The notes beneath the pieces were generated by a model. That model was given only the letters and a program-made list of their open reading frames with translations. It was not told where the DNA came from and did no database searches. Below, piece by piece: positions 2,221 through 28,266 of a stretch of 64,000 nt of DNA; the stretch's first letter is position 1; the number at the start of each line of letters is the position of its first letter. The translations under genes were made by a program, and so were the position numbers. Location of the stretch: the NCBI GenBank assembly GCA_964539105.1, contig CAZIFI010000007.1, positions 2,883 through 66,882 of the forward strand, read 5' to 3'. Origin of the DNA: an uncultured Anaerolineales bacterium. GTDB lineage: Bacteria > Chloroflexota > Anaerolineae > Anaerolineales > UBA11858.

Positions 2221-2907
2221 CTAGGATAAGCGAGGTTGATGATTTCCCGCGGAATGCACACTCAGGTTTCGCATCGGGGCAAACGACAATCGGTGAATGG
2301 GCGTCGGCCCCAGTTCATGGATGGCAGCGCGGTGATTCTGGGTGCCGTAGCCCTTGTTAGCGCTCAATTCATATCCCGGATAGGTTTGGGCCAGCTCAAC
2401 CAGGTGTGCATCCCGGATTGTTTTGGCGAGAATGGAGGCAGAAGCAATGCTCAAAGAACGGGCATCCCCCTTAACAAGCCAGGTTTGCGGGATGGGGTTA
2501 TCCGGGAGATAGAGATAGTCCAATAATAAATGCTGCGGTGAGGGCAGGATATTTTGTAAGGCTCGTTCAGCAGCCAGACGAACCGCAGGAAGGATTCCGT
2601 ACCGGTCGATTTCCTGGGGGGATGAAAAACCCACTCCCCATGCCAGAACTTCCTGGATGAGGGTGGTTTTTACCTCTTCTCGTCGGACAGGCGTCAGCTG
2701 TTTGGAATCCCGAACCTCCCCCAGTCTATCAAGACATGTCGGGTCCGGAGGAAGTAGTACGGCACCCGCAGCGACAGGTCCGGCCAGGGCTCCCCGGCCT
2801 GCCTCATCGATGCCCACCACAAATTGTATATCATTATTCCACAAGGAGGATTCAAACTGAAGATCAGGACAGGGTGGAATGAGACCAGGGTCAATTGTGG
2901 GGGTCAT
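2221..2907 (-). CDS. rnhB: Ribonuclease HII
   Basis: Signature GIDEAGRGALAGPVAAGAV plus KGDARSLSIASASILAK. The start was chosen at MTPTIDPG. Earlier in-frame starts would overlap the upstream GT2 gene more deeply. Confidence 0.9.
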   Translation of the reverse strand: MTPTIDPGLIPPCPDLQFESSLWNNDIQFVVGIDEAGRGALAGPVAAGAVLLPPDPTCLDRLGEVRDSKQLTPVRREEVKTTLIQEVLAWGVGFSSPQEIDRYGILPAVRLAAERALQNILPSPQHLLLDYLYLPDNPIPQTWLVKGDARSLSIASASILAKTIRDAHLVELAQTYPGYELSANKGYGTQNHRAAIHELGPTPIHRLSFAPMRNLSVHSAGNHQPRLS

Positions 2908-3622
2908 AGATTCCTTGTTGCTTATTTCGCCGGATTGTGAGGACATCCAACAGCATTCGAATCGCATCTCTGACCGCGTGAACTTTGCTTTCCTCGTCAA
3001 AATACCATGGGATGGGAACTTCTTTTATCTTATACCCACGCAACCGGGCAATGGTCAGGACTTCAATATCAAAGGACCAGCCAGGCAGGGTGGTGTGAGA
3101 GAAGAGATCTTCAGCGATGGGTGCCCGGAAGCACTTGAACCCGCATTGGGTGTCATGTAACCCGGGGAGAACTAGAAGCCGGATAAAGAAATTCATCAAC
3201 CTCCCTCCCAGATGCCGGTAATAGGGTTCATTGTAGCGGACAGATTCCGGCGCTTCCCGGGTGGCGATGGCTACATCAACATCATCTATTTGGGGCGGGA
3301 TAAACCGATTTAATTCCTGAATAGGCATGGAAAGGTCGGCGTCACACATAAAGCGGTATTCTCCCCGTCCGGATAACATACCCTTGCGGACCGCAGCGCC
3401 TTTGCCAGGTTGACTTTCATGGAGGCTGTGGATGATGTCCCATTCCTGGGCGTAATCCGCGATGATGTGTGGGGTGCGGTCAGTGCTGGCGTTGTCTACG
3501 ACGAGTATTTCCGCTGGATAAGATTGCTGGTGGAGAAATTCGAGGACCTGATCCAACGTGGCAGGGAGACGGTTCTCCTCATTGTATGCGGGAATGATCA
3601 GAGATAAAAAGGGTGTATCCAC
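2891..3622 (-). CDS. Family 2 glycosyltransferase (polyprenyl-phosphate sugar transferase-like)
   Basis: N-terminus LSLIIPAYNEENRL, VVDNASTDRT and a DAD-type motif (CDADLS) typical of the GT-A fold of GT2 enzymes. Confidence 0.85.
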   Translation of the reverse strand: MDTPFLSLIIPAYNEENRLPATLDQVLEFLHQQSYPAEILVVDNASTDRTPHIIADYAQEWDIIHSLHESQPGKGAAVRKGMLSGRGEYRFMCDADLSMPIQELNRFIPPQIDDVDVAIATREAPESVRYNEPYYRHLGGRLMNFFIRLLVLPGLHDTQCGFKCFRAPIAEDLFSHTTLPGWSFDIEVLTIARLRGYKIKEVPIPWYFDEESKVHAVRDAIRMLLDVLTIRRNKQQGIYDPHN

Positions 3623-9314: not shown

Positions 9315-9812
9315 TTAGCCTTCCAGGAGGTGAATGTATAATGTCTCGTCTTCAAGTTTGATGTCCAGTTCGTCCAGCGGGCGCGGTGGCGGGCCGTGGA
9401 TCACGTTTCCCTTGATGTCGAAGGAAGCGTCATGGCAGGGACAGATATAGGCATTTTCATCCTCTTTCCAGGATACGCGGCAGCTGAGGTGGGTGCAGAC
9501 GTTGGAGAAGACCCTGACGTCATCTTCCTCCTCCCGCAACACATAAACTCCGTGGCTGTGGCTAGTCCTTTCCCAGCCATTTACCTGGGTGCGTACGAAT
9601 GAAAACAAGGTCGGTTTTCCAACGGGGTACTTTTCTAAAGGACCCACAGGGACCCAATCCTCTTGTGTGGTTTTTTTCAAAGCAGGGGTAATGAAATAAT
9701 TAATGAAAGGTAGACCGAGAACGGCACCCATGATCGTTCCCAGGAAGGAAAGCACCACTTTGACGAAACTGCGGCGGTCTAACTTTGATGGATCTGATCC
9801 TGCGCTCATCAT
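9315..9812 (-). CDS. qcrA: Rieske [2Fe-2S] subunit with a twin-arginine signal
   Basis: CTHLSCRV and CPCHDASF cluster-binding boxes, and an N-terminal DRRSFVKVV Tat-like motif. The start was placed at MMSAG after GAGGAG; the track ORF extends to 9869. Confidence 0.9.
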   Translation of the reverse strand: MMSAGSDPSKLDRRSFVKVVLSFLGTIMGAVLGLPFINYFITPALKKTTQEDWVPVGPLEKYPVGKPTLFSFVRTQVNGWERTSHSHGVYVLREEEDDVRVFSNVCTHLSCRVSWKEDENAYICPCHDASFDIKGNVIHGPPPRPLDELDIKLEDETLYIHLLEG

Positions 9813-9919
9813 TATCTCCTCATCACCGGGAATAGACAACAGGCCGGTATTGTGTTTTGGTGAAATCATTATAGATGAGAATGAGGCGGGGAGTTGATGA
9901 TAACAAGAACTAACAAAGC

Positions 9920-16294: not shown

Positions 16295-17812
16295 TTAGTG
16301 CCGAAAATGTCGGTTGCCGGTGAAGATCATCGCCATCCCTTGTTGATTGGCTTCTGCAATAACTTCTGTGTCGCGAATCGATCCGCCGGGCTGGATCACA
16401 GCGGTTACCCCTAATTCAGCAGCCAGGCGGATTCCGTCCGGAAAGGGAAAAAAGGCGTCACTTGCCAGGACGGATCCCTGGGCCCGATCCCCTGCGCGGT
16501 ACCCAGCCATGCGCACGCAATCCACCCGGTTGGGCTGTCCGCCGCTGATTCCCACCGTATATCGTTCCTGCCTATGGGCTTTTGCCAGCAAGACGGCATT
16601 GGACTTGACGTCCATCACCGCCTTCCAGGCAAATTGCAGAGCCGTTTTCTCCTGATCTGTGGGGTCCCGTTCTGAGACGATTTTCCAGCCAGAACTCACG
16701 CCCGGGTCCCCCCGATCAGGTGTCTGTTTCAAGAAGCCACCGGGGATGGAGCGGTATTCTGGGTCTGGAAAGGGTTGATCCTGCGAAGATTGAAGCAGGC
16801 GCAAACTCTCATTTTGGGACAGGCGCTGCAAAGCTTGCGGTGCAAAGTCCGGTGCCATGATACATTCCACGAACAGATCCCCTACCGCTTCCACAAAAGG
16901 TATGTGGATGGGGCGGTTGCTGGCGATCACGCTGCCAAAGGCTGAAGTAGGGTCGCTGGCCAGAGCCCGCGTGAACGCCTGGTGGACTTCCCGGGCCACC
17001 GCCACCCCGCACGGGCTGGTGTGTTTGATGATGGCGACAGCCGGCTGCTGGAAGCGATGTACGGTTCGCCAGGCGCCTTCCAGATCGAGCAGATTGTTGT
17101 AAGACAGCGGCTTACCGTGCAGGAGTGTGCTGTTGAAGGGGGCTCCTCCCGGTTTGCGGGCCAAAAAAGCTGCCTCCTGATGGGGGTTTTCCCCATAGCG
17201 CAGCGTCTGACCCGGATAAAGTGTGATGGCTGCAGCTTCTTGAACCTGGCTTAGGTCACGAAAGTATCTGGCAATGGCCTCATCGTAGGCTGTGGTGGTC
17301 ATGAAGGCTTTACGAGCCATCCTGAGGCGGAATTCTTCATTGTCCAGTACCTGCAGCGAGCGGGGATAGTCCTCTGGATCTGAAAGGACGGTAACGCGCC
17401 GGTAGTTCTTTGCAGCGGCCCGCAATAGTGCCACGCCCCCGATGTCGATGTGTTCCAGCACCTGCTCATGGCTGGCATCCTTTTTTTCAGCTGTTTCCTG
17501 GAAAGGGTACAGGTTGACCACAACCAGATCAATGTTCTTCCATCCCTGCTGTGCAAGCTTCTCCCGGGCGGATGCGGTATCCGGAGCGAGGATTCCGGCA
17601 TGGATGGCGGGGTGAAGGGTTTTTACCCGGCCTTCAAACAAAGGCGGCTGCCCGGTGAAATCTTGCACGGATTTGACGTTGATTCCAGCCTCTTCCAGGG
17701 CCCGGGCGGTCCCACCGCTGGCAATCAGCCCCCAGGCATCTTCCTGCAAAAGGCGGGCAAGCGAGATCAATCCCCGCTTATCCCATACCGACAACAAAGC
17801 GGTCTTCGTCAT
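16295..17812 (-). CDS. purH: Bifunctional AICAR transformylase / IMP cyclohydrolase
   Basis: N-terminal MGS-like ALLSVWDK.G...ASGGTA and KTLHP.IHAGIL, and C-terminal AICARFT motifs ([23 protein letters not shown]). Confidence 0.95.
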
Positions 17813-20612: not shown

Positions 20613-21710
20613 TTACAGGTCGTTCAGGGCCCGGAGTAAAGCAGCGGTGTCTGACGGGGTGCCGACGCTGATCCGGATGTGGTCATCCAGGGCCGGTTTA
20701 TCAAAATAGCGGATTAAGATTCCCTGCTGTGCCAGTCGTTCTTTGACCTGGCCTGCGTCTTTGTTGTCCACGCGGCACAGGACAAAATTGGCCTGGGATG
20801 GATAAGGCTCCAGCCAGCTGATTCCGGAAAGCTCTTCGTATAGCCTTTTGCGCTCGTCACGGATGGCCCGGGTTTGGGCCTCCAGCTCAGAGTGGTGAGC
20901 CAGCGTGGCGCGGGCTGCTGCCGCTCCAGCGGCGTTGACATTATAGGGCTGTTTGATCTTCCAGATGGCGGGTGTGATCCACCCGGGAAACACGCCATAT
21001 CCCACGCGCAGGCCGGCTAATCCACCCCACTTGCTGAAGGTGCGCAGCACAATCAGGTTATCATGCTGCCTGGTGTAGTCCATCAGGCTGGATCCGCGGG
21101 GGGCAAAATCAATATAGGCCTCATCGACCACCAGGAGCAGTGGGAGATCAAGCAGGCGCTCCAGCGAGGAGGGGGGGAGGACACCGCCATCGGGATTATT
21201 GGGGGATGCCACAAAGAGTACTTTGGGTGAATATTCACGGACGGCCTTTTCTACTTCTGGCATGTCGAAAGAAAAATCATCCTGGCGCGGGACAGACAGG
21301 ACCCGGCCGGCGTTGACATCCGTGTCAAAGGCATACATACTGAAAGTAGGAGGACAATTCAAGATCAGGTCCCCGGGGTTGAGGATGACGCGTAAGATGA
21401 GATCGATGAGCTCATCCGCCCCGGCTCCGGCCAGAATGCGATCCACGGGCAGATCATGGACTTCAGCGATGTCACGCCGCAAATAGCGTGCTTCAGGATC
21501 GGGATAGATGTGAATGTTTTCCAGATCCTTCAACGTCTCTTTGACTGCTGGCAGAGGTCCGTAGGGGTTTTCATTGGCATCTAACTTGATGAGGTCCTCT
21601 TCCGGAATCCCGAGCTGTTCCGAGAGCACATCGAAAGGATGGATGGGTTGATAAGGGGGCATGTCCTGGATGTGGCCCCGCAGCAGGGTATGAGGCTGAA
21701 AAGAAGTCAT
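20613..21710 (-). CDS. hisC: Histidinol-phosphate aminotransferase
   Basis: [16 protein letters not shown]-like [15 protein letters not shown] and [16 protein letters not shown] (PLP Lys). Confidence 0.95.
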
Positions 21711-23020
21711 GAGTCACTCCGGAAATCAGCGCTGGCCGCGTGAGCTGTAAGGGATTCTACCCGGGCAATTTGAGAAGCCAGCGGGCTCAGTTGGCGGGCG
21801 GTGTCTTGATCGAGGCCGATCAGGCTGCTTATTTTCACAAAATCCATCACGTTCAAAGGAGAAGCAAAGCGGGCGGTTCCCCCCGTAGGCATGATGTGGC
21901 TGGGACCTGCGACATAGTCTCCCAGGACTTCGAAAGAGTGGTCACCCAGGAAAAATCCGCCAGCGTTGTTGATCTTATCCGCCAGTGCAGCAGGGTCTTT
22001 GACAGCCAGGCACAGGTGCTCCGCGGCGTACTCATCCGCCAATTCAGCAGCGGTGTCCAGATCGGGAGTGATGACCGCACCCCCCTTATCTTCCAGCGAC
22101 TGGTTGATGATGTCTGCTCTGGTGAGGGTTTCCAGCTGGTGAGCCACCGCGCGCTGCACGGCTTGTGCCAGGTCCCGGGATGGGGTGAGGAGGATGGCGC
22201 TGGCCAGAACATCATGCTCGGCCTGGGCCAACAGGTCGCTGGCGACCCACTCAGGGTCCGCGCTCTCGTCAGCAATGACCATGGTCTCCGTGGGGCCGGC
22301 CAATCCGTCTAACCCCACAATGCCGTACACCTGCTGTTTGGCGATGGTCACGAACAGGTTTCCAGCGCCTACTATTTTATCCACCCGGGGGACGCTTTCC
22401 GTGCCAAACGCCATAGCGGCAATGGCTTGCGCTCCTCCGATTTGATAGACTTCGTCAATATCGCACAGGAAAGCGGAAGCCAGAATGCTGGGGTCAGGAT
22501 CCGGGGGGGTGGTGACAATAATCCGCTCCACCCCTGCTGCCTGGGCCGGGATGACGGACATCAGCAGAGAAGAGGGTAGGGGGGCGGTCCCACCCGGTAC
22601 ATAGACGCCCGCCCGCTCTACCGCGGTCACCCGCTGGCCGAGGATGCCGCCCATGTCGGAGGTGGTCCAGTCCGGCAGCGGCTGACGGCGGTGAAAATCG
22701 CGGATGCGGTCCGCGGCTGTCTCCAGGGCATCTTTTAATTCTGGTGATAAATCCTGATAGGCTTTCTGCAGTTCCTCCGCCGGGGTGAGGAAGGTCTCCA
22801 TGTCGGTGTTATCCAGGGTGAGGGACCACTTACGGAGCGCTTTGTCTCCCTCCTCGCGCACTGAGTTCATAATTTGGGTCACGGCTTGATAGGGGGTTAC
22901 GCCCGGACCGAAAATTTCCTCTACCCCCAGCCTGACCATTTCCGGCACTTCCTGGGTGTTAAGGGGTTGGCGGCGAAGGATCGACTTTTGTGCTTTTTCA
23001 ATGTCATATATCTTGAACAT
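21707..23020 (-). CDS. hisD: Histidinol dehydrogenase
   Basis: GVYVPGG.AP.PSS, IGGAQAIAA, QAEHD and GD...GP.H..PT motifs. The start was placed at MFKIYD (ATG at 23020 after AGGAG). The track extension to 23068 overlaps hisG. Confidence 0.93.
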   Translation of the reverse strand: MFKIYDIEKAQKSILRRQPLNTQEVPEMVRLGVEEIFGPGVTPYQAVTQIMNSVREEGDKALRKWSLTLDNTDMETFLTPAEELQKAYQDLSPELKDALETAADRIRDFHRRQPLPDWTTSDMGGILGQRVTAVERAGVYVPGGTAPLPSSLLMSVIPAQAAGVERIIVTTPPDPDPSILASAFLCDIDEVYQIGGAQAIAAMAFGTESVPRVDKIVGAGNLFVTIAKQQVYGIVGLDGLAGPTETMVIADESADPEWVASDLLAQAEHDVLASAILLTPSRDLAQAVQRAVAHQLETLTRADIINQSLEDKGGAVITPDLDTAAELADEYAAEHLCLAVKDPAALADKINNAGGFFLGDHSFEVLGDYVAGPSHIMPTGGTARFASPLNVMDFVKISSLIGLDQDTARQLSPLASQIARVESLTAHAASADFRSDS

Positions 23021-23039
23021 GGAACGACTCCTGAAAAGG

Positions 23040-24050
23040 TTATTGGTGAGCGCTGTCGAGGGCGTCAAGCATGGCTTTATAGGCGTCAGGTTCCTCTTCG
23101 AAGATATATTTCACCGAGGTCACCACCACGCCGCTTCCGCCGATTTCTCGCAATTCACTGATGGCCTGAGCGAGTTGGTCCTTACGGACCACGATATGGG
23201 CCGCAAACCAGTCTCCATCTTTGTCTGTCATCACGGGGGATATCGTCGGCCCCTGCAGCCCGCCGATCACTTTCTGGGTCTTCATTTTATCAGCGATGGC
23301 CCGGGGAGATTCCCCGCGCATGTTGGCAAACACGGCAACGTTGTTTTTGGCCCGCAGATGGGCGACGATGAACTCCAGTAGCTGCCGGGCGACATCCAGG
23401 GCCTCCGGTCTGTTTTGCAGTGAGGGCCGGTGGGCTACCAGACAGGCTTGGGAGGAGAGGATTTCACCATCCTGCAGGGCTTTGAGATGATTGGCGCGCA
23501 TGGTGGTACCCGTGGAGACCAGGTCCACAATCAGATCGGTATGGCCGATGACGGGAGCAATTTCCAGCGTGCCTTCTGCCGAGATGTAATCCACGCCTTC
23601 CAGGCCGAACTCCTGGAAAAAAGACTCCGTCAGGCGGGGGAATTTTGTGGCTACTCTGAGATTTTCTTCTTCCCGCTCCTGAAGGATTTCCAGGTCATCC
23701 ATGTGGTTGATATCCGTCCAGGCTTCAGGGACGATCACGTTCAGCGTGCACTGCCCGTAGCCCAGTTCCCGGTGCAAAGGAAGAATGTTTTTACCTACGC
23801 CGCCCTGCTCGCATACCATATCCCACCCGGTGATGCCAAAATCAACCGTGCCGTCATGCACGCTGACGGCGATATCACCTGCCCGCTGAAAAAGGACGGT
23901 CACACGCGGCAGGCTGGGAATGGATGCCTGAAATTGGCGGGGATTGGGTTTATAGACCCGGAGACCGGCTTTGGCCAGTAAATCAAGGGTATCATCCGCC
24001 AGCCGCCCCTTGCTGGGCAAGGCCAGCCGGATGTCATTACGATTGCTCAT
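23040..24050 (-). CDS. hisG: ATP phosphoribosyltransferase, long form with C-terminal regulatory domain
   Basis: LALPSKGRL, D.GITG.D, LV.TG.TM..N.L and the C-terminal ACT-like HisG_C region. AGGAGGAAG lies upstream of the ATG. Confidence 0.93.
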   Translation of the reverse strand: MSNRNDIRLALPSKGRLADDTLDLLAKAGLRVYKPNPRQFQASIPSLPRVTVLFQRAGDIAVSVHDGTVDFGITGWDMVCEQGGVGKNILPLHRELGYGQCTLNVIVPEAWTDINHMDDLEILQEREEENLRVATKFPRLTESFFQEFGLEGVDYISAEGTLEIAPVIGHTDLIVDLVSTGTTMRANHLKALQDGEILSSQACLVAHRPSLQNRPEALDVARQLLEFIVAHLRAKNNVAVFANMRGESPRAIADKMKTQKVIGGLQGPTISPVMTDKDGDWFAAHIVVRKDQLAQAISELREIGGSGVVVTSVKYIFEEEPDAYKAMLDALDSAHQ

Positions 24051-24076
24051 GGAACTTCCTCCTGTGTTTTCCCATT

Positions 24077-24110
24077 AAAAACAAAAAAGCGCCCTCCTCG
24101 CGGAGGACGC
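24077..24110 (-). terminator. Attenuator terminator immediately upstream of hisG
   Basis: Minus strand: GCGTCCTCC-GCGA-GGAGGGCGC (9-bp stem with one G-U pair, tetraloop) followed by TTTTTTGTTTTT. It lies 26 nt before the hisG ATG and 30 nt after the stop of the His-rich mini-ORF. Confidence 0.8.
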
Positions 24111-24140
24111 TGTGGATAATCTCGTTTGGTTGCAAGTACC

Positions 24141-24221
24141 CTACTTAAGCACGTCCTGACCGGTCGGAGCCGCCGGCAAAGTGTGATGATGGTGATGGTG
24201 TAAGGACGTGTAGCTGTTCAT
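24141..24221 (-). CDS. His-operon leader peptide (hisL-like), 26 codons with six consecutive His codons
   Basis: Minus strand, base by base: ATG AAC AGC TAC ACG TCC TTA CAC CAT CAC CAT CAT CAC ACT TTG CCG GCG GCT CCG ACC GGT CAG GAC GTG CTT AAG TAG = MNSYTSLHHHHHHTLPAAPTGQDVLK*. It is too short for the ORF track. Confidence 0.75.
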   Translation of the reverse strand: MNSYTSLHHHHHHTLPAAPTGQDVLK

Positions 24222-24231
24222 ATCTGCGGCG

Positions 24232-24260
24232 ATTGTAGCATGGCCTCCCGTGGCTGTAAA
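24232..24260 (-). promoter_or_regulatory. Near-consensus sigma-70 promoter of the his operon
   Basis: Minus strand: TTTACA (24260-24255), 17-nt spacer, TGC-TACAAT (extended -10, 24240-24232). Only 10 nt separate the -10 from the leader ATG. Confidence 0.65.
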
Positions 24261-24289
24261 GAGGGTTTCTTAAATATCTGATGAGAGGG

Positions 24290-25360
24290 TCAATTGGAGT
24301 ACCGCGCCCGATCGAAATCTTGAGCTGGCGGGTCATTTGTTGAAGATATTCCTGATATGACAGGTTCCCTCGGGGCGCGGATCGATACCACCCAGGCCCA
24401 GAGGAAAAATCCGGCTCCCAGCAGCGTCTGGATGAAGGAAAGTATCTCGTATAAACCCCGAAGGGCGGCAAGCGGGGGATGGTAGATCCCGGCTAACCCG
24501 TAAATTAAGCAGGCGCCCGCTGGTAGGGTCAGCAGGGGTAGGGTCTGGTGCCAGCTGACTCTGCCTTTCAAGGCTGTCAGCAGGCTGGTCCGGCCCGGAT
24601 TGCGTCTGCGGCTGATTTCCAGGGGAATCAGGACCAGGATGACCAGGGCCAGCAGCTTAAAGATTGCCAGGGGCAGGATCACAAAAACCTGGCTGATAAA
24701 GACCAGCAGGGTCAGGACCGCTAAAATCCCGAGCTCCCAGCTGTTGAGCTGGAATGAGCTCGCCCAGAAACCCACTCCGAGCAGCCAGTGAGCGGCCATC
24801 AGCATCCCGGTGAAGACCAGGGTGTAAACCAGGAAATCAGGGAATGGCCACGCTCCGGGGACCCACTGCTCCCCCTCTGCAAGCAGCCCTTGGAATTCCT
24901 GGACCGCTTCGGGAAGCCGGTAAGGCAGGGCCCACAATCCCCAGAATACTCCCAGGGCCAATCCGCCTCCCAGCAGGGTTTTCCAGCGCGATTCGATCAG
25001 GCAGGTCCGGATCCAGTAAATGCCGATCACCACACTCAATAAGCCGTGCCAGCCGATAAAATAGGCCGGCATCACGGGATCCAGCAGGCCGGCTTCATAA
25101 ATGACGGTTGTCAGCACCCCTTCCACGAGGAAACCGTATAGGGATCCAATCAGCACCACACCAGGTAAGGAAGCGACGCGAAAGAGGTCAATCAACCAGA
25201 GTGAAAAGGCTACGGGAAGGGCGTAAAAGAAGATCAGCTCCAGGATCGGGTATCCGCCGATGTACCAAAATATTTTTTCGGAAAAGAACACGATCACAGC
25301 TGTGCAGAGCAGCAGGAAGACGAAGTGCCGGAGGCTTTTAGGAAGATGATTGATTTTCAT
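24290..25360 (-). CDS. Polytopic membrane protein of unknown function (paralog of 26530..27579)
   Basis: About 9-10 predicted TM helices. Shares FFSE/FFAE, G(S/M)L(Y/F)G(F/L)xE(G/A)xLT and WH motifs with the other protein. Confidence 0.7.
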   Translation of the reverse strand: MKINHLPKSLRHFVFLLLCTAVIVFFSEKIFWYIGGYPILELIFFYALPVAFSLWLIDLFRVASLPGVVLIGSLYGFLVEGVLTTVIYEAGLLDPVMPAYFIGWHGLLSVVIGIYWIRTCLIESRWKTLLGGGLALGVFWGLWALPYRLPEAVQEFQGLLAEGEQWVPGAWPFPDFLVYTLVFTGMLMAAHWLLGVGFWASSFQLNSWELGILAVLTLLVFISQVFVILPLAIFKLLALVILVLIPLEISRRRNPGRTSLLTALKGRVSWHQTLPLLTLPAGACLIYGLAGIYHPPLAALRGLYEILSFIQTLLGAGFFLWAWVVSIRAPREPVISGISSTNDPPAQDFDRARYSN

Positions 25361-25421
25361 ATAGGTTATCTCCGCCTGTAGTGTCTAATGTTTGATGTCA
25401 AAAGAGAACCCTTCCCGGGAT

Positions 25422-26594
25422 TCACCAGCCCCGGGCAGCTGCTTCCTGGAGGAAGGCTTCATAGCCAGGTTTGTCCTCCCCGTCCCCGGGATAGGTGCGC
25501 AGCCCCAGGGTGCGTAAAAATTCCCCGAAGGCCCGGCTGGAGAGGCCGTAATACTGTGTTAGCTTCTTCACGGAGGATCCGGGTAAATCCGAAAGCCAGG
25601 AGTAGGAGAGCAAGGTGATTTGCTCTGCGTGGTCGTCCCAGGCTGAGAACATGTGCCGGATGAATTCGGCCTGCTTTTGGGGGCTGCTCTCGTTGGCTTC
25701 TGCAGTCGGGTACCCGATTTCCGTGATGTGAATTTCCCGCTCTGGATAGGCTTCGACCAGACGCTGAAAATCCGATTGGATCACTGCCGGTTTCCTGACG
25801 GAGAAATCCCCCTGCAGCGGGTAGTACGTGGTCATGATCACGTCGCTGGATCGATTGAGCGATCGGGCGAATTCGGCGGAGGGTCCAAGCAGCCCTTCGA
25901 ACTGGACCTTGGTGCCGACCGGAACCCCGGGCCACAAGGAGCGGGCGTGGTCCGCCCCGGCGGCGTAAAAGGTCTGATATGCCCCCCAGGCGTCGGGATC
26001 TGCGCCCAGCACGCCGTCAATCTCGTTGCCAATGGCCAGCGATGTCAGCTCCAGGGCGGGGATCTGCGTGGCGATATAATCCAGCAGATCCTGAAAACGC
26101 TCAATCACCTGGGGGTGATCGAGGGGCTTCCCCTGCAGATCCCGCGGCAGGCGGATTTCCGTGGTATCCAGCACCGCGATCACCAGCGACAGGCGCAGTC
26201 CCTGGGCCGGGTAGTAGTCATTGGCGATAGCCAGCCAGTTGGGCTTAGGCTCATACACCCCGGGTGCGGGTTCCAGTTCATCCCAGAACACAGAAAGGCG
26301 GGTGGATTCTACCCCCAGCTGGCGGGCGTGTTCGACGGCCTGATCGTAATCGCCGTTCTGGGAGGGGTTGACATCCAGCTCCAGGGTCCTCTCACCCTTG
26401 GAAAGGGCCTCTTGCCTGATTACGGTATCCTGTTCGGGTGAGATGGTAGCGCTTACCTCCTCCCCGGATCCACCGCAGGCCAGGACAGACAGCAGCAGGG
26501 CGGAGAGAAATAGGAAATATCGAGGTGTCTTAGGCAAAGGTTTCCTTTTTCGAAGCGGAAGGTTTTTGAATGGTGAGCCGGACGGCTTTGGCAA
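25422..26594 (-). CDS. Secreted lipoprotein, clan GH-A-like (TIM-barrel) glycoside hydrolase
   Basis: Lipobox LLSVLAC-GG. LAIGNEIDG (candidate acid/base NE) and HITEIGYP (candidate nucleophile E) have the spacing typical of GH5-like enzymes. The start is uncertain because the ORF overlaps the upstream gene by 65 nt. Confidence 0.65.
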   Translation of the reverse strand: MPKPSGSPFKNLPLRKRKPLPKTPRYFLFLSALLLSVLACGGSGEEVSATISPEQDTVIRQEALSKGERTLELDVNPSQNGDYDQAVEHARQLGVESTRLSVFWDELEPAPGVYEPKPNWLAIANDYYPAQGLRLSLVIAVLDTTEIRLPRDLQGKPLDHPQVIERFQDLLDYIATQIPALELTSLAIGNEIDGVLGADPDAWGAYQTFYAAGADHARSLWPGVPVGTKVQFEGLLGPSAEFARSLNRSSDVIMTTYYPLQGDFSVRKPAVIQSDFQRLVEAYPEREIHITEIGYPTAEANESSPQKQAEFIRHMFSAWDDHAEQITLLSYSWLSDLPGSSVKKLTQYYGLSSRAFGEFLRTLGLRTYPGDGEDKPGYEAFLQEAAARGW

Positions 26595-27579
26595 ACATGA
26601 TCAGGCTGAAGAGGATGCCCCCGAACCAGAAAATCAGAGCCATAGGTTCGGCGACGGGAGCCAGAAGCAGTTTCCCGCTGACCGCTGCCACAGGGAAGAT
26701 CCCGGCCAATACCAGCCAGAATCGATCCGGTAAATTCTCCGGAACAGGAGTCCGGGGCACATTTCGCAGTTTTGATCCTGGTTTCAGACTCTGCCAGAGC
26801 AGGAAGAAGGAAAGAGCATACAGCAGCCAGATCAGGCCCTGTCCGATCAACCCGGGGATGGCTTCCGGGCGCATCACGGCGCCCATGATCAGGTAGAGCA
26901 GGGCGGTGGGGATGAGCAGTTGACGAAACTCCTTTTTACCCGGCAGCAGCTCACCCATGGTGTAGGATTGTTCCCGGGTGGCCCGGAGCCAGACTAGGAC
27001 CAGGCCGATCAAGACCGCGGTGGTGGAAAGGCCGGAGAGCAGCGACTGGTTGACGGAGGGTGAATTGATGCTCTGGAAGAACCCGCCGAAGATCACCAGG
27101 CCGACCAGTCCCCGGCGGCTGTTAAGCAGCCGGCCCACGGCGCCGGGAAGGCTCTGGCTGAGCGCCCAGGAGCGGGTGAGCAGCTTTTCCGCGATCAGCA
27201 GGGGAATGATGAAGGAGAACCAGGCATGCCACCAGAGCACCAGCACCAGGGTTTCAATGGGGGCCACGCCGCCGATGAGCAGGGCTTCCTCCCAGGTGGG
27301 CGCCCAGAGAATTTTGGTCAGGTAAGCTTCGTACAGTCCAAAGAGCATCCCGGCGAAGATCAGGCTGGGAAAGCGCGGCCGCGGCGTCCGGTAAACCAGA
27401 TGGGCGAGGACCAGGATGTGCAGGCCGTAAAGCGGGACCACCACCAGCAGGCCCCAGGCATGGAAGAAAGGGAACATGTCAGCACCGGAAAAGACCTCGG
27501 CAAAGAAGGTGGAGAAAGCGGCCAGGATCAGCCAGAAAAGGGCTTTATGCTTCCAGGGAATGGGATGTGTCTCTTGCAT
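26530..27579 (-). CDS. Polytopic membrane protein of unknown function (paralog of 24290..25360)
   Basis: About 9-10 TM helices, with shared motifs as above. It is the first gene after the putative ECF-type promoter copy B. Confidence 0.7.
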   Translation of the reverse strand: MQETHPIPWKHKALFWLILAAFSTFFAEVFSGADMFPFFHAWGLLVVVPLYGLHILVLAHLVYRTPRPRFPSLIFAGMLFGLYEAYLTKILWAPTWEEALLIGGVAPIETLVLVLWWHAWFSFIIPLLIAEKLLTRSWALSQSLPGAVGRLLNSRRGLVGLVIFGGFFQSINSPSVNQSLLSGLSTTAVLIGLVLVWLRATREQSYTMGELLPGKKEFRQLLIPTALLYLIMGAVMRPEAIPGLIGQGLIWLLYALSFFLLWQSLKPGSKLRNVPRTPVPENLPDRFWLVLAGIFPVAAVSGKLLLAPVAEPMALIFWFGGILFSLIMFAKAVRLTIQKPSASKKETFA

Positions 27580-27716: not shown

Positions 27717-27749
27717 AATAAAAAACCCAGCCTTGTAATCCAAGGCTGG
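27717..27749 (-). terminator. Rho-independent terminator of the sigma/anti-sigma/membrane operon
   Basis: Minus strand: CCCAGCCTTG-gatta-CAAGGCTGGG followed by TTTTTATT. Confidence 0.75.
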
Positions 27750-27777
27750 GGGTAGAGTGGAGGTGCGGAAATACGGG

Positions 27778-28266
27778 TTATTCTTCGGATTCCGAACCTT
27801 GTTTGGGTGGGAAGAAGGAAAGGATAGCAGCGCCGAAGCCTCGGAAGGTGAGATAGGGAAAAAGTAGGAACCAACCAATGACCGGGGTCAGGCTGGCCAA
27901 TATGACCACTGTGCTTCCCCAGATGAGTTGGAGAGGGGCATTTTTTGCAGGGAGCAGGCGGGTGCCTACCAGCTGGGCTAAAGCGCCTAATCCCATAATC
28001 AACCCCACCAGGAACACGCCGCTGATAGCAAAGGAGAGGATGAAGAACGGGCTGAATGTATCACCGACAGCCAGGGATCCAAGGGTAAGTGCCGAGGCGA
28101 ATAATGTGTTGACCAGGCCCAACCAAAATGAGCGTCTGGGTTGCGTCTGGACTGTGATTTGAATCCGTTCCATGCGTTGGGGAAAAAGCAGGCGCATGGT
28201 CAAAAAGAGGGCTAATATTGTCACTGCAGAAAACAGAATGAGGAGTAAAAGGGCAAGTGTTTCCAT
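27778..28266 (-). CDS. Small polytopic membrane protein, co-operonic with sigma/anti-sigma
   Basis: 162-aa protein with 4-5 hydrophobic helices. No recognised motif. Confidence 0.6.
   Translation of the reverse strand: METLALLLLILFSAVTILALFLTMRLLFPQRMERIQITVQTQPRRSFWLGLVNTLFASALTLGSLAVGDTFSPFFILSFAISGVFLVGLIMGLGALAQLVGTRLLPAKNAPLQLIWGSTVVILASLTPVIGWFLLFPYLTFRGFGAAILSFFPPKQGSESEE

Follow-up and report, generated by a model that had tools for sequence, protein, structure and literature searches.

The window analysed here, a stretch of 64,000 nucleotides (nt) from an uncultured Anaerolineales bacterium of the phylum Chloroflexota (assembly GCA_964539105.1, contig CAZIFI010000007.1), carries on its minus strand a histidine biosynthesis operon, hisG-hisD-hisC-hisB-hisH-hisA-hisF followed by a purH-like gene and hisE (PRA-PH), at positions 24050-15647, as assigned with NCBIfam and Pfam. 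The operon is headed by a long-form hisG encoding 336 amino acids, and the region directly upstream of this gene contains a promoter, a short open reading frame (ORF) with a run of histidine codons and an intrinsic terminator, which are considered here together as a candidate ribosome-mediated, or leader-peptide, attenuator. This possibility was raised by an earlier sequence-only reading of the same DNA, made without database searches, which had also named hisG as the downstream gene and guessed that its surroundings were Chloroflexota-like. The gene assignment is borne out by the protein families, and the taxonomic guess proved right, because the nearest relatives of HisG are found in Chloroflexota/Anaerolineales metagenome-assembled genomes (MAGs).

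The leader region upstream of hisG

The elements of the leader are all read on the minus strand. Its promoter comprises a -35 hexamer, TTTACA (24260-24255), located by a promoter scan, and, after a 17-nt spacer, an extended -10 element, TGCTACAAT (24240-24232), located by a consensus scan. This promoter ranked among the two best sigma-70-like matches in a scan of 10 kb, agreeing with the consensus at 10 of 12 hexamer positions and carrying the extended TG as well. Ten nucleotides, CGCCGCAGAT, separate the -10 element from an ATG at 24221, which opens the leader ORF MNSYTSLHHHHHHTLPAAPTGQDVLK* (24221-24141), consisting of 26 codons and a TAG stop at 24143-24141. Codons 8-13 (24200-24183) are six consecutive histidine codons, CAC CAT CAC CAT CAT CAC, which would constitute the sensor and form the sole run of at least five His codons on both strands of the window (128 kb). 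The leader thus displays a hallmark of ribosome-mediated attenuators, namely tandem codons for the amino acid made by the operon within a short upstream ORF. An out-of-frame ORF of 108 amino acids (24145-24471), which had already been reported from the sequence, overlaps the leader region.

Segment 1, CACGTCCT (RNA CACGUCCU; 24210-24203), lies immediately 5' of the His codons and supplies the 5' strand of a putative anti-antiterminator. Its perfect complement is segment 2, AGGACGTG (RNA AGGACGUG; 24157-24150), and folding places an inner hairpin, GCCGG-N9-CCGGU (24177-24159), within the resulting 1:2 helix. Segment 2 spans codons 22-24 (Q-D-V); its sequence and position had been given correctly before, whereas its codons had been counted as 21-23. 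It is part of a block, CYGGNCRGG, and has two alternative partners, namely segment 1 and, in the form AGGACGU, segment 3, GCGUCCU (24110-24104), which forms the base of the 5' arm of the terminator. The terminator hairpin itself, GCGTCCTCC-GCGA-GGAGGGCGC (RNA 5' arm GCGUCCUCC; segments 3:4; 24110-24089), has 10 pairs, 7 of them G-C, a calculated energy of -19.8 kcal/mol, and was picked independently by the consensus scan. It is followed by the U-tract TTTTTTGTTTTT (24088-24077), which ends 26 nt before the ATG of hisG at 24050, so that an intrinsic terminator stands between the leader ORF and the first structural gene, a further trait of ribosome-mediated attenuators. The hisG gene has its own Shine-Dalgarno sequence, AGGAGG (24063-24058), and its ATG lies 90 nt from the leader stop codon. 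The promoter, the spacing to the ATG, the 26-codon ORF with its six His codons, the perfect complementarity of segments 1 and 2 and the hairpin with its U-tract had all been pointed out in the sequence-only reading, and each was recovered at the positions listed here.

Conservation and reading frame in Chloroflexota

The comparison set consisted of 80 hisG loci from species-representative genomes, all belonging to Chloroflexota and mostly to Anaerolineae, with HisG proteins 59-89% identical to that of the window; upstream sequence was available for 79 of them. A profile of the element matches immediately 5' of hisG in 77 of these 79 species genomes, including an Anaerolinea thermophila MAG (L062), and a His-run mini-ORF is present upstream of hisG in most of the fetched loci. 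A leave-clade-out profile, built with the window's own clade excluded, recovers the window element from end to end (24223-24080, E = 1.2e-15) and nothing else convincing in the 64-kb window. The next-best match in the window (9797-9856, plus strand, E = 0.004, 11.8 bits) corresponds to the part from segment 1 to segment 2, lacks a His run and is probably due to chance. No second copy of the element was detected within 3 kb on either side of the 80 loci, where the extra minus-strand matches were palindromic terminators only, and no convincing unit of promoter, short ORF and terminator for another amino acid was found in the window. Two loci gave no profile match, L044 (Roseiflexaceae) and L073. 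The latter (2700-3000) has a short ORF close to the promoter (MMKPNEVRRLHAHARM...), in which the His run is reduced to an H-A-H motif, together with a GC-rich terminator, and may represent an attenuator that has degenerated or diverged.

These results also bear on the simplest alternative, a chance co-occurrence of a His run, a promoter-like site and a terminator. In the 10-kb scan, promoter-like and terminator-like sites were not rarer in the real than in the shuffled sequence, which speaks for such a coincidence; however, the recurrence of the element in 77 of 79 genomes, its recovery by a profile that excludes its own clade and the uniqueness of the His run in 128 kb effectively refute chance, whose probability we regard as negligible.

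The architecture of the family is well defined. In 58 loci a promoter of the form cCTTGaC, 17 nt, TGcTAcAAT occupies the same position as in the window. These loci were chosen by a TAnnnT hexamer 10 nt before the ATG, and the middle positions of the -10 hexamer are conserved too (A in 52 and A in 57 of 58), as is the upstream TG (T in 42, G in 43). The distance from the -10 element to the ATG is 10 nt in 58 of 74 loci (range 7-11). The length of the leader ORF is 20-41 codons (median 26), of which 3-8 specify His; a GC-rich hairpin followed by a U-tract begins 19-49 nt after the stop codon, and hisG follows 14-270 nt further on.

The 5' end of the transcript is predicted to lie very close to the leader ORF. 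Promoter geometry places the start of the window transcript at A24225 or G24224, leaving a 5' untranslated region (UTR) of 3-4 nt, and no Shine-Dalgarno sequence precedes the leader ATG. Among the loci with 10-nt spacing, 44 of 58 have C at position -4 and 57 of 58 a purine at position -3, and Shine-Dalgarno-like tetramers between the -10 element and the ATG occur in none. A pyrimidine followed by a purine 7-8 nt after the -10 hexamer is the usual signature of a start site, so that the transcript is predicted to begin about 3 nt before the AUG, and the leader ORF would be nearly leaderless. The strong AGGAGG of hisG shows that the organism does use Shine-Dalgarno-led initiation.

The reading frame of the leader was assessed with two independent landmarks, the ATG being set by promoter spacing alone and the (CAY)n run by sequence alone. 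In all 48 loci of this test the run is in frame with the promoter-defined ATG and no stop codon intervenes, compared with a chance expectation of one-third; the second leader codon is usually AAN. Such agreement appears to be the signature of a translated sensor ORF. The conserved block CYGGNCRGG that follows the His run behaves differently, lying in frames 0, 1 and 2 in 6, 14 and 23 loci, respectively. Because it is found in all three frames, it must be constrained as RNA and not as protein, and the differing peptide tails TGQDVLK, DRSGLL and GRTVLR are encoded by the same nucleotides because the block sits in different frames. In 36 of 43 loci the block is followed by a stop codon at a distance of 7-14 nt, so that a ribosome terminating there would also reach over the block.

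A translated ORF might also encode a functional His-rich peptide, for example a metal-binding one, with the hairpin acting as a constitutive partial terminator and no sensing involved. The conserved frame, which suggests translation, is compatible with such a role, and His-rich peptides can bind metals. Nevertheless, the peptide is not conserved outside the His run, its C-terminal part being read in three frames, the ORF is positioned strictly 5' of hisG, and the mutually exclusive, covarying pairings described below would be left without explanation. We therefore consider a peptide function highly improbable.

Mutually exclusive pairings and their folding behaviour

The helices of the element were evaluated by compensatory change in an alignment of 74 sequences. 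The terminator helix is paired in 96.8% of cells, with compensatory double changes at each of its 6 pairs (e.g., G-C in 40 versus C-G in 27), while 84.9% of cells are paired in the inner CCGG-N9-CCGG hairpin, with changes from G-C to U-A/A-U. The majority form of the 1:2 helix is GUCCUGC:GCAGGAC, and the CACGUCC:GGACGUG of the window's clade represents a shifted register; one of its pairs is U-A in 27 sequences and A-U in 13. Sliding the partners by 1-3 columns lowers the pairing of the whole structure from 80% to 42-54%. In the 2:3 helix, segment 3 comprises the top of the terminator 5' arm and the loop in 51 of 75 sequences, and in some cases extends into the 3' arm by its initial bases. Because the antiterminator of these sequences pairs with the loop, their terminator loops are conserved as GGUC or UGACC. 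In the window's clade, segment 3 is instead the GCGUCCU at the arm base. Compensatory sets in the 2:3 helix include CCGACCGGG:UCCGGUCGG (L009, L018) versus CCAACCGGG:UCCGGUUGG (L025), with further compensatory pairs in CCGGUUGGGG:CCCCAACCGG (L056), UCGGUCAGG:CCUGAUCGG (L058, L076) and CCAUACCGGG:UCCGGUAUGG (L041).

Because registers shift between clades, the 1:2 and 2:3 helices were tested by explicit pair counts, per-locus duplex energies, shuffles and permutation. Relative to composition-matched shuffles, the mean z was -2.1 for 1:2 (55% of loci individually at p <= 0.05) and -1.9 for 2:3 (52%), and the window's own 1:2 helix reached z = -2.4. Segments paired more strongly with partners from their own locus than with those from other loci, at -17.4 versus -13.5 kcal/mol for 1:2 and -18.7 versus -16.0 kcal/mol for 2:3, and for both helices 0 of 5000 permutations reached the observed value. 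The comparison of orthologous loci that the sequence-only reading had suggested thus found both the mini-ORF and the three pairings maintained.

A variant arrangement occurs in a sub-clade (L039, L040, L047, L051, L061, L064, L066, L067, L069, L072 and L075) whose peptides read ...LHHH(H)x..PLPDRRAG. Here GCAGG has its partner strand (CCUGC) right after the His codons and not before them, and the antiterminator, which draws on the terminator arm and loop, is CUGACCGG:(C/U)CGGUCAG; this implies that the segment masked by a stalled ribosome has been rewired within the family.

The strong conservation of segment 2 and the inner hairpin across the class, independent of frame, could also suggest that a trans-acting factor, either an RNA-binding protein or uncharged tRNA-His, reads CCGG-N9-CCGGnCAGGAC and chooses between terminator and antiterminator, with the His-run ORF being secondary or untranslated. 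The leader ATG without a Shine-Dalgarno sequence would agree with this view, and T-boxes are known in Chloroflexi (PMC3766115). However, searches with Rfam models gave no T-box (RF00230) match near hisG at E <= 10 and no other cis-regulatory family there at that threshold, and across the whole window the only matches at gathering thresholds were two tRNAs (Pro and Arg). An in-frame His run, as seen in all 48 loci of the frame test, and a stop codon maintained immediately 3' of segment 2 would be superfluous in an untranslated element, and the dual pairing of segment 2 with segments 1 and 3 already accounts for its conservation. A trans-acting reader is accordingly judged improbable.

In the unconstrained minimum free energy fold of the window leader, the 1:2 helix, the inner hairpin and the terminator are all formed. 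The relevant state was modelled as the ensemble of a nascent transcript truncated before the terminator 3' arm and masked by a ribosome. Without a ribosome, the probability of the 1:2 helix in this ensemble is 0.96 and that of 2:3 is 0.00. With the A site on His codons 8-12, 1:2 falls to 0.00-0.06 and 2:3 rises to 0.86-0.90; on His codon 13 the values are 0.39 and 0.55, and with the A site on the stop codon both are 0.00. In silico, the window leader therefore forms an anti-antiterminator when the ribosome is absent, and a ribosome placed on the His codons gives rise to an antiterminator incompatible with the terminator, as is expected of an attenuator. In the family, a stalled-ribosome mask leads the 5' arm to pair with the region after the His codons in 61 of 74 loci, and 1:2 forms without a ribosome in 52 of 74. 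The 1:2/2:3/3:4 geometry proposed from the sequence is reproduced in these truncated, ribosome-masked folds; family-wide it needs modification, since segment 3 is mostly the top of the arm plus the loop.

Stalling on the His codons could in principle act elsewhere than at the intrinsic terminator, with the mini-ORF affecting hisG translation or Rho through unmasking of the ribosome-binding site (RBS), reinitiation or polarity. Leaderless short ORFs are known in which ribosome stalling reports on an amino acid and makes a downstream RBS accessible (bioRxiv 10.1101/834739), and a His-rich ORF without a terminator is found at L044. In this Roseiflexaceae MAG (2833-3000), a Shine-Dalgarno-led ORF (AAGGAGGAAGT-ATG) starting MHHLHHGHHHLHHGHHAHY, with 11 His among its first 17 codons, overlaps the GTG start of hisG out of frame, and no intrinsic terminator is present; within the class Chloroflexia, this design may represent a His sensor that works through translational coupling. 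In the window, by contrast, the Shine-Dalgarno sequence of hisG is not paired to leader structures in any fold, the 90 nt between the leader stop and the hisG ATG are too far for coupling, and the family retains, with covariation, a GC-rich hairpin and U-tract of canonical form. An action on translation or Rho in place of termination is thus quite improbable for the element.

Several observations weigh against attenuation at the terminator or limit how firmly it can be asserted. First, the 1:2 helix has weaker support than the terminator, with only 62% of cells paired in a single fixed alignment register, and RNAalifold on a MAFFT alignment recovered the terminator only and not 1:2. Second, the terminator and segment 2 are invariant in the window's clade (the window and L001-L005), and consequently there is no covariation for the 2:3 register of that clade, for which the window's individual shuffle gave a p value of only 0.06. 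Third, the loci are phylogenetically related, so that the permutation and binomial p values overstate their independence, although the direction is clear. Fourth, whichever ribosome mask is applied to the full-length leader, the terminator (-19.8 kcal/mol) prevails over the 2:3 helix of 7 bp. The earlier suggestion that folding should reveal whether 2:3 can compete has therefore received a divided answer, negative at equilibrium and positive in the nascent transcript with a ribosome on the His codons, and a terminator that always wins at equilibrium means that the switch must be kinetic. The leader of Escherichia coli K-12 hisL, run through the identical procedure as a positive control, behaves in the same way, in that its terminator always wins at full length and its 5' arm is captured only when the transcript is truncated and a ribosome occupies the His codons. 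The outcome at equilibrium accordingly does not refute the model, and the equilibrium criterion was dropped. Fifth, how the leader ORF is initiated is uncertain, given that a 5' UTR of 3-4 nt is not strictly leaderless and that leaderless genes are estimated to be rare in Chloroflexi, at ~5% in the few genomes of this group where they have been detected (PMC3160421). More generally, the start site, the leaderless-type initiation, the translation of the leader, the kinetics and the dependence on histidine are aspects of the model that we infer.

Proposed mechanism, related systems and operon context

Considering the elements together with the conservation, frame behaviour, covariation and mutually exclusive folds obtained computationally, we hold with good confidence that the leader is a ribosome-mediated his attenuator, which would sense charged tRNA-His through the speed at which the six His codons are translated. 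In this model, transcription would start about 3-4 nt upstream of the leader AUG, and a ribosome would load on the nearly leaderless 5' end. When His-tRNA is plentiful, the ribosome would reach the UAG, 7 nt past segment 2, and cover this segment, allowing the terminator hairpin and U-tract to form and transcription to stop before hisG. If no ribosome is present, segment 1 would pair with segment 2 around the inner CCGG hairpin, again resulting in termination. When His-tRNA is scarce, the ribosome would stall on codons 8-13 and cover segment 1 and the start of the inner hairpin; since these flank the His codons, a stalled ribosome removes both partners of segment 2. The freed segment 2 (AGGACGU) could then pair with GCGUCCU, the base of the 5' arm, while the 3' arm is still to be transcribed, and with the 5' arm captured, RNA polymerase would read through into hisGDCBHAF.

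The scheme resembles that of enterobacterial hisL in its short ORF with a His run before hisG (seven His in E. coli, six here), its intrinsic terminator and its mutually exclusive pairings, and also in its folding, with the 5' arm free without a ribosome and captured when a ribosome is placed on the His codons of the truncated transcript. However, the two differ in several respects. There is no sequence or covariance-model similarity, the proteobacterial Rfam model His_leader (RF00514) having no match in 23000-25500 even at E <= 10 and none window-wide at gathering thresholds. Whereas hisL has a 5' UTR, the window ORF lies ~3 nt from the predicted 5' end and lacks a Shine-Dalgarno sequence. 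Segment 1 is situated upstream of the His codons, which places these codons inside the 1:2 helix and not ahead of it, and three helices with an inner hairpin replace the A:B / C:D / E:F scheme. Finally, the antiterminator of most Chloroflexota relatives pairs with the terminator loop, and the phylum is a different one.

Outside Proteobacteria, candidate His leader-peptide attenuators have been predicted in three Firmicutes lineages, the Bacillus cereus group, Peptostreptococcaceae and Erysipelotrichales (Ashniev et al. 2022, PMC9413887), so that a non-proteobacterial his attenuator is not new in itself. The statement in the sequence-only reading that such attenuators are documented mainly in Proteobacteria is roughly right and has to be extended by these predictions. 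The Firmicutes candidates share with the present element their identification by comparative genomics, their 3-5 tandem His codons, their combination of terminator and antiterminator and their lack of an RF00514 match. They differ, as far as their description allows them to be set apart, in belonging to another phylum and in that each is limited to a narrow lineage, compared with at least 77 species-level Anaerolineae-type Chloroflexota genomes here. Leaderless sensor ORFs are known from Actinobacteria, such as the Corynebacterium glutamicum ilvBNC attenuator (PMC11857589) and the poly-Cys short ORFs of mycobacteria (bioRxiv 10.1101/834739), in which a short ORF is translated from the transcript 5' end without a Shine-Dalgarno sequence, as is predicted for the window leader, and stalling on tandem codons remodels the downstream RNA. 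These systems belong to another phylum, sense Ile/Leu/Val or Cys and, in the mycobacterial case, act on RBS accessibility and not on a terminator, while the 5' end of the window transcript, ~3 nt before the AUG, is a predicted one.

A broad survey lists for histidine only the essentially γ-proteobacterial RF00514 and for Chloroflexi T-boxes (PMC3766115), and a full-text search of the open literature, with subscription-only papers such as Russian-language attenuator surveys outside its scope, found no description of a his leader in Chloroflexi. It is thus very likely that the element is a ribosome-mediated his attenuator of the classic kind that evolved independently and had not been described before. 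The broader proposition, on which we lean modestly to the affirmative side, is that a His-sensing family spans the class Anaerolineae and neighbouring Chloroflexota, arose independently of the proteobacterial one, relies on a near-leaderless sensor ORF and has an antiterminator that typically invades the terminator loop.

The element does not introduce a new principle of regulation. If the proposed function is true, it would be the first ribosome-mediated transcription attenuator documented for Chloroflexota, extending to this phylum a mode of control that is best known in Proteobacteria, with predicted cases in some Firmicutes and Actinobacteria. At least 77 species-level Chloroflexota genomes appear to use it as their standard means of controlling the his operon. 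It would also provide a natural case of a pioneer ribosome loading on the first few nascent nucleotides to couple with RNA polymerase, and the near-leaderless predicted start raises the question of how this first coupling occurs. The alignment is unusually rich, with covariation in both terminator and antiterminator and a pairing register that shifts between clades, which makes it useful for studying the evolution of switches, and deposition as a new RNA family could prevent the mini-ORF from being missed by automated annotation. The presence of the element in the A. thermophila MAG means that a cultured relative could serve for experiments.

Some features of the operon and its surroundings merit description. 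The purH-like gene between hisF and hisE (16295-17812, minus strand) encodes an MGS domain and AICARFT/IMPCHase. As 5-aminoimidazole-4-carboxamide ribonucleotide (AICAR) is a by-product of HisHF, a purine-recycling step would be co-transcribed with histidine biosynthesis and placed under the His attenuator. The longest hisD ORF (21707-23068, minus strand) has a TTG start and a 29-nt overlap with the end of hisG; since the HisD domain begins only at residue 63, the true start of hisD is probably further downstream. Three ORFs in a row, encoding 356, 390 and 349 amino acids, adjoin the his promoter on its upstream side (24290-27579, minus strand). They have no NCBIfam or Pfam match at the thresholds used, and the first of them stops just 30 nt ahead of the -35 box. 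A further strong terminator-like hairpin, with 10 pairs followed by TTTTTTATT, is located at 27726-27750 on the minus strand, immediately downstream of an ORF of 162 amino acids (27778-28266).

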